The notes: generated by a model from the sequence alone, not told the origin. Shown: positions 43,199 to 48,365, numbered from the stretch's first letter. The stretch is DNA of 64,000 nt from Armatimonadota bacterium (GCA_046292385.1 JBKBRF010000018.1:55446-119445), one strand, 5' to 3'. Translations and numbers: made by a program.

Positions 43199-45229
43199 CT
43201 ACGGCGAGGGGGGCATCATCGGTCGGTTCACGCGGGGAACGGTCACGGGTACCGTCTTCGCCGGCTGCTCGTTTCCAGCCACGTGGTAGCGGAACTGGTA
43301 GCTGTCCAGTAACTTGGGCGGCCCCGCGGGCACCAATGGGCTCCCGGTGCCGAGCTTCGGCGTGCGGAGCTGGCCATCGGCTCCGGCGAACCCCTGGACG
43401 ATGATCCGCGACATTCCTTCGTCGCCTTCGCTGGTGTAGGCCTGCTGCTGCATCTCTCGTACCGAGAGGCTGAAGCCGCCGCTGGCAAGGTCGCCAGGTG
43501 TGGCCTCCTGCGGATCGCTGGCGAACACCGGCCCCGCCGGCTGGGAATGGAAGGCGGCGGTGAAACCCCCCGCCTGCAGCGGAGAGAGCTGCTGGACCGG
43601 AAGAATACCGCCGTTCAACACTACCTGCCGCTGCTGGGGGAGCAGCGACGCCCAGAACCGCAGGTGGTGCCGCCCGTCGAAGAACCCCCAGGGGCGGGTC
43701 GGCTGCTCGATGCCGGTCCCTTCCAGATACCAGGTCCAGAGCGTGTCGAGCCCGCTTGCCTGGGCATCGGTCAGCGCGGCGGCAAACTGGGCCAGGTCGT
43801 CAAGCCGCACCGCGCCCGCCGCGAGCACGCGCTCCCACCACGGGGTCAGGATCCGCGCCGGCACCTCCATCGGGCGGTCGTAGAACCAGGTACTGCTCCG
43901 GAGGATCAGCAGCTTGCCTTCTTTCGACCACTCGTACCCCAGGTCGTGAGCGATCGCATCCAGGACTTCCACCACCGGCTTCTTGCCGGACAGGCGCAAC
44001 CGGGCTCGGGTGTAAGCATCGGCGAGGACCTCCAGGCCGGTCTCCTGGTGAATCCGGCTCAGCACGGCGGCCAGGGGGGTGCCGCCCGGGGGCGGCCCGT
44101 CGCCCAGCACGATGACCGGGCGGATACCGTCCCTGCGCGGGAGTGCGGGAGCCGCGCCGAGGTCGATCATTTTCTTCAGATCCGGATCGTCCGTCTCGGT
44201 CTTCTGCCGGTTATCGGACAGATCCGGGTCCGAGAGAGACGGAGACCAGACCACCGGAAACGAGGAGCGCCGGCCGTTTCCGTCGCCCCTAAGGCTGCTG
44301 AGCATAAACTCCAGCCGCAGGGACGGCGTGCCGGGAGTAAAGCGTGGGAACCGGGTGCCGGTGTTCTGGGACAGCTTGATCACCGCGGCCGCCTCGACCG
44401 GGAGCAGGTTCTCGGGTGAGAACGGGGCGGCCCCGCCTCCGGTGCCAGGGGCCGGCGCGGCGAGACCGAGTACCCGCACCTCCCCGCTCGTGCGCATCTC
44501 GTCGGCTGCCTGGTGGACGAGATCGGCCAGCCCGGGTGCGAGCCCAGCGCCTACGATCGAGAGCTCACCGCTGCCCAGGAGGGCGGCTGACTGCGGCGGC
44601 GTGAGGCCGCGCCAGAGGGCGGCACACGCCGCCGCCCCGGGGCGCATCGCCGCGCGGAGACTTTCCAGCTCGTCCTGCAGCGCCGCGCGCTCTTCCGGCG
44701 CGGCATCCCGAGCTTTCCGATCCAGCTCGTTCATCCGAGTCATCAGTTGTTCGCGCGGCATGCCCACAAGCTGCGCCACCCGCTCCATCTGCTCCTGGAT
44801 CCGGGCGAGCTGCCGGCTGCGATCGGCCTCCCGGAGGGCCGCCTCCCGCCGCTTCGCCCCGGCGTTCTGCGTCAGCTCGTAGCCGTCTCGCGCGCGGTAC
44901 CACTGGTAATCGAAGTGCTCGCTCAGGCGGGTCAGCACCTCCGCCGCGGGCCGGTCCTTTACCAGCAGCGTCACCTCTTCATCGGCGGTATCCCCGGTGG
45001 TGACGAGCCGCAGCTTGAGCCGCTTACTCAGGTCCGACAGCGCGTCCCGCAGCGGCGTCTCCCGGAGCTCTACGGAGATCTTCTCCTGAAGCCGGGAGTC
45101 CCGCGCCATCGCCGCCGCGCCCGGATCCCGTGCCGCCTGGGGAGCACGCACCTGCTGTGCGCTCACAGGTAGAGCGAAGAGCAATCCCGCAGCGAGCGCC
45201 GCGGCACAGAGCGACCATCGACGGTTCAT
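43199..45229 (-). CDS. Secreted hypothetical protein with STN/secretin-N-like domains
   Basis: Signal peptide MNRRWSLCAAALAAG; LQEKISVELRETPLRDALSDL pattern repeated near PLAAVLSRI. Confidence 0.7.
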   Translation of the reverse strand: MNRRWSLCAAALAAGLLFALPVSAQQVRAPQAARDPGAAAMARDSRLQEKISVELRETPLRDALSDLSKRLKLRLVTTGDTADEEVTLLVKDRPAAEVLTRLSEHFDYQWYRARDGYELTQNAGAKRREAALREADRSRQLARIQEQMERVAQLVGMPREQLMTRMNELDRKARDAAPEERAALQDELESLRAAMRPGAAACAALWRGLTPPQSAALLGSGELSIVGAGLAPGLADLVHQAADEMRTSGEVRVLGLAAPAPGTGGGAAPFSPENLLPVEAAAVIKLSQNTGTRFPRFTPGTPSLRLEFMLSSLRGDGNGRRSSFPVVWSPSLSDPDLSDNRQKTETDDPDLKKMIDLGAAPALPRRDGIRPVIVLGDGPPPGGTPLAAVLSRIHQETGLEVLADAYTRARLRLSGKKPVVEVLDAIAHDLGYEWSKEGKLLILRSSTWFYDRPMEVPARILTPWWERVLAAGAVRLDDLAQFAAALTDAQASGLDTLWTWYLEGTGIEQPTRPWGFFDGRHHLRFWASLLPQQRQVVLNGGILPVQQLSPLQAGGFTAAFHSQPAGPVFASDPQEATPGDLASGGFSLSVREMQQQAYTSEGDEGMSRIIVQGFAGADGQLRTPKLGTGSPLVPAGPPKLLDSYQFRYHVAGNEQPAKTVPVTVPRVNRPMMPPSP

Positions 45230-45252
45230 CGTCCCTCCCTCCACCAGGTGAT

Positions 45253-45405
45253 GTGTAACAAAAGGGATAGGGAGATGGAGCTGGAGATCTGGGGATGGCT
45301 CTGCCTGATGCGGCTCACCCGATGTGAAGTCGCACCGCGACCGGCTCGCCTGCCCCGATTCCATCCCCTTATCTCCAATCCATCCCGTTAGCCCTTTTCT
45401 TACAC
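45253..45405. repeat. ~150-bp element with ~46-bp imperfect terminal inverted repeats
   Basis: GTGTAACAAAAGGGATAGGGAGATGG...GGGGATGG versus reverse complement of CCATCCCC...CCCTTTTCTTACAC. Confidence 0.6.
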
Positions 45406-45503
45406 GGCTCTGTCGCACAGCCAGGCAGCCGCGCGCCTCCTCCGGCTTAGACGCAGTGGAGGCCATTTCCGGATCAGCTTTCTTTGAGGGGGATCTCCGC
45501 GAT

Positions 45504-46076
45504 CTATTTGTACGGGGTACGCATGCCGCGGCGGAAGATGGTGGCGAACGCGCGCAGGATATCGAGCGGGTAGAGCAGGATGCTTCGCCGCCGCGGGGTC
45601 GCGCCGGGGTCCCCGCGGAGGAAGCTGATGAGACCGTCGGCGCGGACGCGGGTGACCATGCTGTCGAGCGAGCGGTAGCGGACCCGCAGCCCGGGGTCGA
45701 GCGCGAAGACCGCCGGGTGCGCGATGCCGCCGTGCTCCCGCTCGTTGAGCAGCCCCCACCCGCGTACCACCTCTCGCCGGGTGTCGCACAGCACGGGAAA
45801 CGGGAGGCTCAGCGACTGCCGCATCGGCTCCGCGCGCTCCGGCGGGTCAACGGAGATGGCGACCACCTCCGCCCCCAGCGCCTGGAGCTCGCCGTAGCGG
45901 TCCCGGTACTCCGCCAACTGGCGGAGGCAGAACGGTCACCAGGCGCCGCGGTAGAAGATCACCACCAGCGTGCGGCCCGCCGCGATCTCCGAAAGGCTGC
46001 GAAGCTGCCCCGTGCTGTCCCTGAGGCTGGCGTCTTCGACCCGAGATCCGACCTCCGGTATCACCCCGTTTTCCAT
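45504..46076 (-). CDS. Selenocysteine-containing peroxiredoxin-like (AhpC/TSA) protein, UxxC motif, 190 aa
   Basis: ATG 46076 (RBS GGGAGAG) reads MENGVIPEVG...VIFYRGAW-TGA-PFCLRQLAEY...VVAISVD...HPAVF, in frame with ORF 45504..45917. TGA is codon 47. Confidence 0.88.
45903..45935 (-). promoter_or_regulatory. Bacterial SECIS-like hairpin
   Basis: CTCCGCC-AGTT-GGCGGAG (45926-45909); the loop starts 16 nt after the UGA and has G in its second position. Confidence 0.7.
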
Positions 46077-46182
46077 AAGCTCTCCCGGCACCGAGTGGTC
46101 GTGTCCTGTTGAAGTGCCGCTCTCAGCTTATCCGCGGCCAGCTCCCTTCGGACGCGCGCGACGACACCGGCGAGGCGCTTAC

Positions 46183-46233
46183 TTTAGCCTTCTGCCTTTT
46201 GCCTTTAGCCTTTTGCCTTTAGCCTTTTGCCTT
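46183..46233. repeat. Heptamer tandem repeat (about 7 x TTTWGCC-like)
   Basis: TTTAGCC TTCTGCC TTTTGCC TTTAGCC TTTTGCC TTTAGCC TTTTGCC. Confidence 0.9.
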
Positions 46234-46922
46234 TAGGAGGTTCGCTGCGGCTTCGGATCGCCGCGGTGGGCCAGGTGCCCGGGCTCGGCGACCGGCTTTT
46301 CCACCGGCCGGTGGGCGACCTTTCGGAGGCGTGCGGGGGCCTCATGGCGCCACCGTTCCCGGTACCGCTCTCCGAAGAGCTTGAATCCGAGGGCGGACCA
46401 CCAGTTCGGAAAGTCGCCCAGGCGCCAGTGCGCCTCGATCTTGAAGCGCACCTCGCCGGTCGCGTGGTCCTTCGTCAGGTAGAACCACTCGTACCCGCGC
46501 TCGATGTGGCCGTCTAGCGTGTCGTACCGGAATCCGAAGACGGTCTGGTCGTCCTTCGTCTCCTCGCGGATGCTGTGCACGCGCACACCGGAGAGGAACC
46601 GGAAGCCCAGCACCTTCAGCTCCAGCAGCATGTTGCGGCCGACGAACGGCGCGTTCGGATCGAAGTGACCTTCCACGATGCACGGATCGGAGAAGTCGTA
46701 GTTCATCAACCCCTGGCGCGCGCGGGCGAAGATACCGTCGGGCAGAGGCGGGCCTGGCGGCTCTCGGCCGATCACCTCTTCGGTGCCGTCGACCGTCCAC
46801 CCGTGCTCCGGTTCCATCTCCGCTACCGGGGTCTCGAAGTTCACCTTCCGGTGCGACAGCTCCGAGAGGTAGTACTTCATGGTCTCCTCGGTCCAGCCGC
46901 TCCCGAAGCGCCACAGCGCCAT
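46233..46922 (-). CDS. DUF1990 family protein
   Basis: FARARQGLMNYDF, FGFRYDTLDGHIERGYEWF. Confidence 0.8.
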   Translation of the reverse strand: MALWRFGSGWTEETMKYYLSELSHRKVNFETPVAEMEPEHGWTVDGTEEVIGREPPGPPLPDGIFARARQGLMNYDFSDPCIVEGHFDPNAPFVGRNMLLELKVLGFRFLSGVRVHSIREETKDDQTVFGFRYDTLDGHIERGYEWFYLTKDHATGEVRFKIEAHWRLGDFPNWWSALGFKLFGERYRERWRHEAPARLRKVAHRPVEKPVAEPGHLAHRGDPKPQRTS

Positions 46923-47091: not shown

Positions 47092-48252
47092 TCAGGCGCC
47101 GCGACCGAGCGGCAATCCGGCGGTCTGCGTCTTCGGGTAGAGCAGGAAGCCGCCGCGCATCGCGCGGATCGGACGGCCGGTGACGAGGTGGTAGAGCTTC
47201 ACGGAGACGCGGCCGTCCCGCTTGCGGGTCAACGTGGCGCCGTAGAAGTACTCGCCTCCCCTGGGATGGCGCACGGTGACGACCCCCTCGCCGCCTTCAC
47301 CGTAGAGGCCCTCGACCACCGCCTTGGCGCCGGTGACCAGCAGGCCGGTACCGGCGATCTCCCGAGCCTCCTCACCCAGCGCCGCGGCGGCCTGCTCGTA
47401 CCGCTTCTCGTAGGCGCCGCGATCGCGGTCGAACTTCTTCGCGAGCTGGCTCTCGTCGAGCAGGCTCTGCACGCGGGCGACCTCTTCTTTCGGCAGCTGG
47501 AGCATCTGGGTCTGCTCCACGTCCTCCGCGGTGCTGCCGCGCGCGGCCCAGATCGCAAACTGGAGCGTGTTCTTGCGAGAGAGACCCTTCTGCTCCGCCA
47601 GCGCGAACATCCGGTCCGCTTCCGCGGGCAGCGGCTGCGCGGCCTGCCCCTGGGGCGTGATGGTGTCGCCGCGGCCGATGGCGACTCTCACCGGCTCTCC
47701 GGAGAGGTTGCCGAGGTAGAGGTCGAGCGCCAGGCTGCCGTCGCGGCGGATCGGATCGAACGAGTCGCTCCGGCCGCGGATGGCGACGATCCCCTCTTGC
47801 AGCGCCCGGGCGAGGGTGAGCGTGCGTCCGCCGGCAGTAGCAACCTGCGCGTCGTCCCCGCCGGTAAAGCGGGTCGTCTCGTTCGGGGGATCGGAGAAGA
47901 GGTCGGTGCAGTACGCGGCCAGCTGGACCGTCTGCCCCGGGTTCAGGCTGAACATACCGCCCTGCCCGAAGCTGCCGCCCTGGAACCCCTGTCCAAACCC
48001 CTGGCCAAGCCCCTGGCCGAACTGCGTGCCCTGCCCCAGGCCCTGGCCGAATCCCTGGCCCATCCCCTGGCCGAAGCCCTGGCCGAAGCCGCGCCCGCCG
48101 AACGCCTGCGCGAGCAGGAGCGGCGCCTCGCCGCCGGAGCCGGTCGCCGCGGGATCGGCGGGCACCGCCGGCGCCAGGCAGAGCGAGCCGCAGAGCAGGC
48201 CGGCCGCCAGCGCGAGCGCGGGCCAGCGGCCACCAGAATTCGAGTTTGCCAT
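47092..48252 (-). CDS. Secreted protein with (G-Q-G-F/L/M)n repeats and a putative thioester domain
   Basis: Signal peptide; 12-bp-period repeats at about 47960-48105; AYCTDL...PP and LQFAIW motifs; RBS GGAGGAG. Confidence 0.7.
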   Translation of the reverse strand: MANSNSGGRWPALALAAGLLCGSLCLAPAVPADPAATGSGGEAPLLLAQAFGGRGFGQGFGQGMGQGFGQGLGQGTQFGQGLGQGFGQGFQGGSFGQGGMFSLNPGQTVQLAAYCTDLFSDPPNETTRFTGGDDAQVATAGGRTLTLARALQEGIVAIRGRSDSFDPIRRDGSLALDLYLGNLSGEPVRVAIGRGDTITPQGQAAQPLPAEADRMFALAEQKGLSRKNTLQFAIWAARGSTAEDVEQTQMLQLPKEEVARVQSLLDESQLAKKFDRDRGAYEKRYEQAAAALGEEAREIAGTGLLVTGAKAVVEGLYGEGGEGVVTVRHPRGGEYFYGATLTRKRDGRVSVKLYHLVTGRPIRAMRGGFLLYPKTQTAGLPLGRGA

Positions 48253-48365
48253 GGGGAAATCTCCTCCGCCGCCACCGGCGGGACACGCGATCACCAATGG
48301 GACGCGCTGTTGCTGAAAAAAGTAGCAAGGGTTTCCGGGTGCGGTTCGGGAACGTCCCAGCGACG

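Follow-up and report, generated by a model that had tools for sequence, protein, structure and literature searches.

A probable selenocysteine-decoding gene of the Prx-like thiol:disulfide oxidoreductase family in an Armatimonadota genome

The stretch of DNA analysed here, 64,000 nucleotides from an Armatimonadota bacterium (GCA_046292385.1 JBKBRF010000018.1:55446-119445; hereafter the window), carries on its minus strand, between positions 46076 and 45504, a gene whose reading frame is crossed by one TGA triplet at codon 47. According to the sequence evidence set out below, this locus is very probably a genuine selenocysteine (Sec)-decoding gene of the family of peroxiredoxin (Prx)-like thiol:disulfide oxidoreductases. 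The gene is intact and is predicted to encode a cytoplasmic selenoprotein of 190 residues, in which the recoded triplet provides the first residue of the redox motif U47-P-F-C50 (UxxC, where U is Sec).

The read-through translation of this frame, from its ATG to its TAG, contains no stop other than the TGA at codon 47, which lies in the context ...LVVIFYRGAW-U-PFCLRQLAEYRD..., i.e., FYRGAW-U-PFC followed by LRQLAEY. A preliminary description made from the same DNA had continued the frame of the annotated open reading frame (ORF) upstream across the TGA to this ATG, had noticed a ribosome-binding site in front of it and a 7-bp hairpin with its loop 16 nt past the TGA, and had proposed on these grounds that the UGA is recoded as selenocysteine. 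The frame and the hairpin are present where they had been placed, a putative ribosome-binding site with a GGAG core precedes the ATG, and the recoding itself is supported by the homologues, the decoding machinery and the hairpin. The table-11 ORF list also contains a second possible start, a GTG at 46091. The N-terminus of the read-through protein is not signal peptide-like, and a promoter and terminator scan of the region 45300-46400 found none.

The genome to which the window belongs (7.04 Mb in 91 contigs, 98.45% complete) encodes the whole machinery for Sec decoding that the preliminary description had suggested looking for. A tRNA-Sec was found at 66.6 bits (cut-off 47), and ARAGORN likewise called it tRNA-SeC with the anticodon tca; selA (577.9 bits), selB (367.5 bits, full length, covering positions 2-577 of the 581 in the model) and selD (362.3 bits) are all above their curated cut-offs. 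The selA and selD genes and the tRNA-Sec gene are arranged head to tail on one strand outside the window (C11:87438-90122), and selB is located apart from them (C16:4680-6554). The selD gene has an in-frame TGA of its own, at KCGG-U-ASK.

The TGA at codon 47 is a conserved feature of the gene. We compared 83 orthologous loci, three of them from genomes and 80 from metagenomes, and the codon in this column is TGA in 81 loci and TGC in the other two. The metagenomic loci are the best 80 of 177 confirmed relatives found in a scan that was seeded by a nine-row alignment of truncated (Sec-type) proteins, and their DNA was fetched with patterns located downstream of the redox motif. The tblastn matches of the orthologous loci cross the TGA and span residues 1-190, beginning at residues 1-10. 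Among 41 related genomes that were searched, the two top matches beyond the window genome, G002 and G003, which belong to the same family and to different genera, have one TGA each, in the same column; they share 42% identity (FYRGCW-U-PFCLRQLAEF) and 40% identity (FFRGAW-U-PFCLRQLAEL), respectively, with the window protein. When 401 genomes were sampled across the phylum, 18 matches were obtained in 16 genomes at E <= 1e-18. Three of these matches bear a TGA, and all three are from a single family, f1 (the window genome, G002 and G003); the other 15 have no stop and cover only residues 7-161, approximately.

Outside this group of orthologues the column is occupied by cysteine, as had been expected from the outset. 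All the more distant full-length homologues have the motif W-C-P-F-C, and P0005 (186 aa), one of the 20 closest homologues in a collection of 5.8 billion proteins, is a full-length protein with Cys at the U column and with the C-terminal tail that is described below. Homologues thus have Cys opposite the UGA, and the coding sequence is conserved on either side of it. One additional contig scan used a pattern with Cys at the U column, so that it could return Cys-type homologues only and is uninformative on the Sec forms. A protein-cluster look-up of seven homologues returned a single name, "peroxiredoxin".

The second element required for recoding is a selenocysteine insertion sequence (SECIS), and the hairpin that follows the TGA has the properties of a bacterial one (bSECIS). 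It is an 18-nt structure with a 7-bp stem and the 4-nt loop AGUU; the hairpin begins 10 nt, and its loop 16 nt, after the UGA. Folded alone it has a free energy of -12.8 kcal/mol (z = -5.09), which none of 200 dinucleotide shuffles equalled, and within a 66-nt context the fold has z = -2.47, a stability matched by 3 of 200 shuffles. The bSECIS model, in the form given in Fig. 2 of PMC13188914, allows 3-9 nt in the loop and 4-16 bp in the stem, asks for a G within the first two nucleotides of the loop and for 16-37 nt between UGA and loop, and sets the minimum free energy at no more than -7.5 kcal/mol. The window hairpin, with its G at loop position 2, lies within every one of the constraints listed in that figure, so that the SECIS-like character attributed to it in the preliminary description holds up against the published model.

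The TGA and the hairpin both recur in 81 of the 83 orthologous loci, which is more than chance would produce. The 60-nt segments of these loci (71 distinct sequences) align without gaps, columns 19-24 are invariant, and the six inner base pairs can be formed in 70-71 of the 71. In the true register 88.1% of the pairs are formed, versus 17-71% in controls in which the 3' arm was slid along the same sequences. The window's own fold also contains a lower stem, which was left out of the element because it is not conserved among the orthologues.

The codons that make up the stem and the loop are frozen. Among 76 unique Sec forms, the glutamine and leucine codons of the element are always CAG (76/76) and TTG (76/76), and alanine is always GCG (70/70), while the shares of the same codons in the rest of the same genes are 0.62, 0.20 and 0.42, respectively. 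The flanking codons are free to vary in these 76 forms: Pro is written with four codons, Phe as TTC (46) or TTT (27), and Cys as TGC (54) or TGT (22). This freezing at the codon level is a stronger argument for a SECIS than covariation. The two loci with TGC at codon 47 differ in this respect. In L120 (361-402) TTG-GCG has become CTG-GAA and the hairpin is lost (z = +0.95), and L175 (1621-1662) retains the hairpin sequence, suggesting a more recent Sec-to-Cys conversion in the latter.

Several points weigh against this reading or narrow its reach. The proportion of TGA among the metagenomic loci (78 of 80, the exceptions being L120 and L175) describes the seeded clade and not the wider family, because the seed was of the Sec type and the loci retained are the 80 best among 177 relatives. 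The outermost pair of the stem (13-30) is formed in only 14 of the 71 sequences, and the conserved stem is therefore of 6 bp rather than 7. Covariation is sparse, with four cells changed on both sides, among them two compensatory C-G to U-A cells at pair 18-25; an almost invariant stem leaves little room for more, and the shuffle counts (1-6/500) overstate the covariation support, since the sequences are related to one another. In addition, the conservation is partly that of the protein, as the frozen nucleotides also encode the conserved peptide C-L-R-Q-L-A, and it is only the synonymous-site argument that separates RNA-level from protein-level conservation in the stem. When 45700-46100 was scanned against Rfam at E <= 10, the only matches were four at chance level, none of them to a SECIS family; this was to be expected because Rfam has no general bacterial SECIS model. 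Regarding the protein, no NCBIfam model reached its cut-off (the best one, a thiol peroxidase equivalog, scored 43.9 versus 140), and the biochemical role proposed below is deduced from residues.

The predicted protein has a peroxiredoxin fold. It matches PF00578 (AhpC-TSA) over residues 9-134 with an E-value of 1.1e-27 and 96.9 bits (cut-off 26), and Redoxin is matched too. The AlphaFold2 model, built from a 28-row alignment, has a mean predicted local distance difference test score (pLDDT) of 90.4 and a predicted template modelling score (pTM) of 0.88, and places residue 47 just before the helix formed by residues 48-59. The top Foldseek matches of this model are all peroxiredoxins, with probability 1.00, among them Bcp4 (3hjp_A; TM-score 0.87, target-normalised, root-mean-square deviation 2.0 A over 155 columns), and a profile search of solved structures returned the BCP of A. 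pernix (2cx3_A) in the first place (3.9e-28). The basic C-terminal tail, which is absent from the more distant CxxC homologues and is thus specific to the clade, is predicted to form a strand (163-165) and an amphipathic-looking helix (170-183), with a pLDDT that falls to 78 and then to 58 at the end.

The active site does not follow the fold. Canonical peroxiredoxins carry the motif PxxxT/SxxC together with a conserved catalytic Arg. In the alignment with 2cx3_A, whose motif is P-A-A-F-S-P-V-C, the Pro stands opposite R43, the Ser opposite U47 and the peroxidatic Cys opposite C50, and the catalytic Arg (KRAVF) is opposite P121 ('giavPavf' aligned with 'MVAKRAVF'). The alignment of homologues presents the same division, with R in the T..C-type proteins P0055, P0026 and P0039 versus P in all the WCPFC-type rows. 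Therefore, in the window protein, the canonical Pro is replaced by Arg43, the Thr/Ser by Sec47 and the Arg by Pro121. It is a peroxiredoxin-shaped protein without the catalytic residues of peroxiredoxins, provided instead with a thioredoxin-style UxxC motif and an opposing Pro. The invariant residues include R43, D98, N111 and R143. The label peroxiredoxin-like, given in the preliminary description, is therefore right for the fold but cannot be extended to the catalytic residues, and because these are absent "Prx-like thiol:disulfide oxidoreductase" is a better name, in keeping with the PF00578 match and the motif U47-P-F-C50. The SelL-related redox proteins (NF040769) are another Prx-like family linked to selenoproteins, to which the window protein does not belong: this model was the second best of NCBIfam, covering residues 13-110 at 2.5e-11, with 43.5 bits versus a cut-off of 120.

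The alternative that survives best grants that the gene encodes a selenoprotein and makes it a classical peroxiredoxin, in which a peroxidatic residue would act on H2O2 with the assistance of Pro, Thr and Arg. The BCP/PrxQ fold would agree with it, and Sec-peroxiredoxins of the TxxU type do exist in the published record, one such paralogue being present in this genome. Nevertheless, the three positions that define a peroxiredoxin are those changed here, the Sec occupies the position of the Thr and not the peroxidatic one, and the score for PrxU (NF040737) is 27.1 versus 270 bits. In the literature, the UxxC Prx-like proteins are kept separate from the TxxU peroxiredoxins precisely on this ground, according to the available text of PMC1088965. 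We consider this alternative very unlikely. A reduction of peroxides of the glutathione peroxidase kind was not counted under it but under the preferred explanation, a Sec-decoding thiol:disulfide oxidoreductase.

A more radical possibility is that translation does end at the TGA, the locus being either a pseudogene or the source of a truncated 137-aa protein that starts at the TTG at 45917. Table-11 calling does give this 137-aa ORF, the database protein of the window (P0002; 137 aa, 99% identity, 72% coverage) corresponds to it, and the calls of 19 of the 20 closest homologues in the protein collection begin, like P0002, 2-8 residues past the U column. This uniform truncation is what gene callers are expected to produce on any selenoprotein, and hence it is not independent evidence for a stop. 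A pseudogene would not have retained the TGA and the hairpin, together with an upstream frame that is both conserved and open, in 81 of 83 loci whose amino-acid identity is 40-53%, and a protein of 137 aa would start too late to include the redox motif or the fold's first strands. Termination at codon 47 is thus extremely improbable, and the ORF that starts at the TTG is an artefact of taking the TGA for a stop.

No greater credence is due to the idea that a residue other than Sec, such as Trp, Cys or Gly, is inserted at the TGA, whether through near-cognate suppression or in a reassigned genetic code. The inserted residue is not readable from sequence alone, and this leaves room for such a reading. 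Against it, TGA ends 2558 of the 5375 stop-to-stop frames of at least 400 codons, being the commonest terminator of long frames, which indicates that the genome uses it as a normal stop and that the code is not reassigned. Moreover, the column alternates with Cys codons only, the hairpin fits the SelB-dependent SECIS model and the Sec machinery is complete.

The reads and contigs available for the gene bear on the quality of the codon itself. In the likely source run the gene is covered at a depth of 51.8 with zero differences, and codon 47 is covered with 0 differences by X2 record 2 and X3 record 5, which are contigs of two further studies; another contig (X4 record 11) covers the codon with 9 differences, of which those listed are elsewhere, and its support is weaker than that of X2 and X3 because differences at its ends are partly unlisted. 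The contigs from the runs of other studies have neither TGC nor TGT at this codon. A sequencing or assembly error for TGC or TGT, to which TGA is close (one base separates it from TGC, and two orthologous loci do have TGC), is accordingly a near-negligible explanation, all the more so as 80 other independent assemblies have TGA in the same column.

All the components of recoding, i.e., the UGA, the SECIS-like hairpin and the machinery, are present, and a mechanism for the Sec-decoding gene can be proposed from the established bacterial one. SelB loaded with Sec-tRNA(Sec) would bind the 18-nt hairpin and insert Sec at codon 47, so that translation would not terminate there. In the folded protein the active site U47-P-F-C50 would lie at the N-terminus of helix 48-59. 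The selenolate of Sec47 would attack an oxidised substrate, Cys50 would resolve the intermediate to give an intramolecular selenenylsulfide, and a reductant of the thioredoxin type would then reduce the selenenylsulfide. As to the substrate, we give somewhat better than an even chance to a protein or small-molecule disulfide, and a hydroperoxide attacked in the manner of glutathione peroxidase is a possible candidate that we put forward with clearly less confidence, a small remainder being left for substrates of other kinds. This specific chemistry is less certain than the claim that the gene decodes Sec.

Prx-like selenoproteins with UxxC have been described since 2005 from Sargasso Sea and Global Ocean Sampling metagenomes (PMC1088965, PMC2398784), and for the latter dataset Table 2 of PMC2398784 gives 225 selenoproteins and 2,740 Cys homologues of Prx-like 1 (pfam00578, UxxC). 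The reviews of 2022 and 2026 list, in the available parts of their text, a "Prx-like thiol:disulfide oxidoreductase, PF00578, UxxC/UxxU" with a predicted function only (PMC9312934, PMC13188914). As far as these accounts go, the window gene belongs to an already published family and is no new kind of selenoprotein; its membership was judged by the published description. According to that description, the window gene and the published family alike have PF00578, UxxC instead of TxxU, a SECIS right after the UGA and Cys homologues. The clade of the window differs in its basic C-terminal tail of about 30 residues and its almost invariant SECIS, and its metagenomic sources are of soil type or labelled as hot springs, not marine. 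A literature search found, in the text accessible to it, no co-mention of selenoproteome terms with Armatimonadota or Armatimonadetes, and the accessible text of BSepDB mentions neither Prx, AhpC nor Armatimonad.

With the Sec-peroxiredoxins (TxxU, NF040737) the window protein has in common the Pfam family, the fold and a Sec in the active-site turn. However, in those enzymes the Sec is the peroxidatic residue and occupies the second position of TxxU, whereas in the window protein the Sec comes first and the Cys second, and the catalytic Pro and Arg are replaced. The Cys-type proteins that NCBI names 'peroxiredoxin-like family proteins' (e.g., P0025) are alike in FYRGxW-C-PFC, in the Pro that substitutes for the catalytic Arg and in the core fold. 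These W-C-P-F-C proteins have Cys for Sec, an additional helical region at the N-terminus and some 22 residues inserted after residue 110; the C-terminal tail is missing from them, and their identity to the window protein is 27-39%. This Cys-type family may correspond to CDD cd02970 (PRX_like2). The solved BCP/PrxQ proteins (S. solfataricus Bcp4, 3hjp; A. pernix, 2cx3/4gqf; M. tuberculosis BcpB, 5epf) have the same fold at 23-29% identity; their catalytic triad is not conserved in the window protein, and they have neither CxxC/UxxC nor the tail.

With respect to the RNA element, the hairpin agrees with the bSECISearch consensus model, as far as its published outline goes, in being a stem-loop located immediately 3' of the UGA within the coding region, with a small loop that contains a G followed by a U and with a spacing in the 16-37 nt range. 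The window SECIS is a minimal one: its conserved stem has 6-7 bp, its loop 4 nt, its spacing is at the lower limit of 16 nt, and there is no conserved lower stem. It also resembles the SECIS of the fdhF type from E. coli.

The window gene is not the only one of its kind in the genome. Counting this gene, 12 of the 32 AhpC/TSA matches have one TGA, always at the redox motif: nine of them are UxxC, one TxxU and two UxxT, and hence eight UxxC, one TxxU and two UxxT are found among the eleven paralogues outside the window. Most of these TGA-bearing genes have a G-containing small-loop hairpin 16-17 nt downstream. The selenoproteome is therefore paralogue-rich, with at least 12 TGA genes of the AhpC/TSA type plus SelD. 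The preliminary description had foreseen a selenoproteome that standard gene calling would miss, and both this count and the calls of the closest homologues, which start after the TGA, bear it out. The coordinates of the features are collected in Table 1.

Table 1. Coordinates of the selenoprotein gene, its elements and the TGA-bearing paralogues (window positions unless a contig is given)
Feature	Position	Strand	Remarks
Complete predicted selenoprotein gene	45504..46076	-	190 codons plus TAG; ATG 46076-46074, TAG 45506-45504
In-frame TGA, codon 47, first residue of UxxC (U47-P-F-C50)	45936..45938	-	TGA in 81/83 orthologous loci
Putative bacterial SECIS core CUCCGCC-AGUU-GGCGGAG	45909..45926	-	5' arm 45926-45920, loop 45919-45916, 3' arm 45915-45909
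Cys50 codon TGC, second residue of UxxC	45927..45929	-	Column invariant in alignment A5; faces the peroxidatic Cys
Pro121 codon, in ...GGIAHPAVFALD...	45714..45716	-	Catalytic-Arg position of peroxiredoxins; nearly invariant in A5
Basic C-terminal tail, residues ~160-190	45507..45599	-	P-R-R-R...R-A..N..R.G.R.P; conserved in orthologues
Shine-Dalgarno-like GGGAGAG	46080..46086	-	GGAG core 5 nt before ATG; putative ribosome-binding site
Truncated ORF, TTG start, 137 aa	45504..45917	-	Table-11 ORF list; also protein call P0002
Further TGA-bearing AhpC/TSA matches	C17:7123-7503, C18:43626-43973, C22:72648-73025, C6:130728-131090, C14:76331-76696		Outside the window
Further TGA-bearing AhpC/TSA matches (continued)	C14:77522-77887, C4:280346-280705, C4:136407-136787, C13:85065-85388, C1:280379-280726		Outside the window
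TxxU paralogue, STGG-U, true Sec-peroxiredoxin type	C41:2746-3117		Outside the window

The neighbourhood of the gene gives no indication of a partner. No conserved neighbour was found across the 83 loci, where related flanking frames group together in at most 9 loci, and no flanking gene points to a partner. These nine loci (L130:193-1471 and eight others) form a sub-clade with a conserved frame upstream of the selenoprotein gene, which is PhzF-like by eye only. In the window, the upstream neighbour (46233-46922, minus strand) encodes a DUF1990 protein according to Pfam, and the downstream one (43199-45466, minus strand), which begins 37 nt past the stop of the selenoprotein gene, encodes a protein of 755 aa; neither is conserved beside the orthologues. 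Pfam assigned no family to the 755-aa protein, which has a hydrophobic segment after about 80 residues. Further upstream, the N-terminal part of a 401-aa ORF (47092-48297, minus strand) contains successive GFGQG/GLGQG repeats; this ORF has no Pfam match.

It may be asked whether the orthologues form a separately definable clade of Prx-like selenoproteins, cytoplasmic, near-obligate in its use of Sec, provided with a basic strand-helix tail and with a SECIS so constrained that the peptide C-L-R-Q-L-A is frozen by it, captured by no NCBIfam model, and not yet catalogued. If so, and given that the bacterium is terrestrial and its selenoproteome unusually rich in paralogues, selenium-based thiol redox chemistry would have expanded in this lineage, away from the marine and anaerobic environments from which large selenoproteomes are mostly known. 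We regard this only as a tentative and rather doubtful proposal.

The gene leaves the current understanding of Sec decoding unchanged. What it corrects is the annotation, since the product would have 190 residues, including the active site, and not be the 137-residue fragment now recorded, and the database entries of 19 of the 20 closest homologues are cut short in the same way. It would also add a well-supported clade of terrestrial origin to a family of selenoproteins known chiefly through marine metagenomes, and would offer a natural example of a minimal bacterial SECIS that constrains overlapping codons, to be compared with the Cys-converted L120, which has no hairpin. For the organism, it would mean that much of the thiol-redox equipment of the genome depends on selenium.

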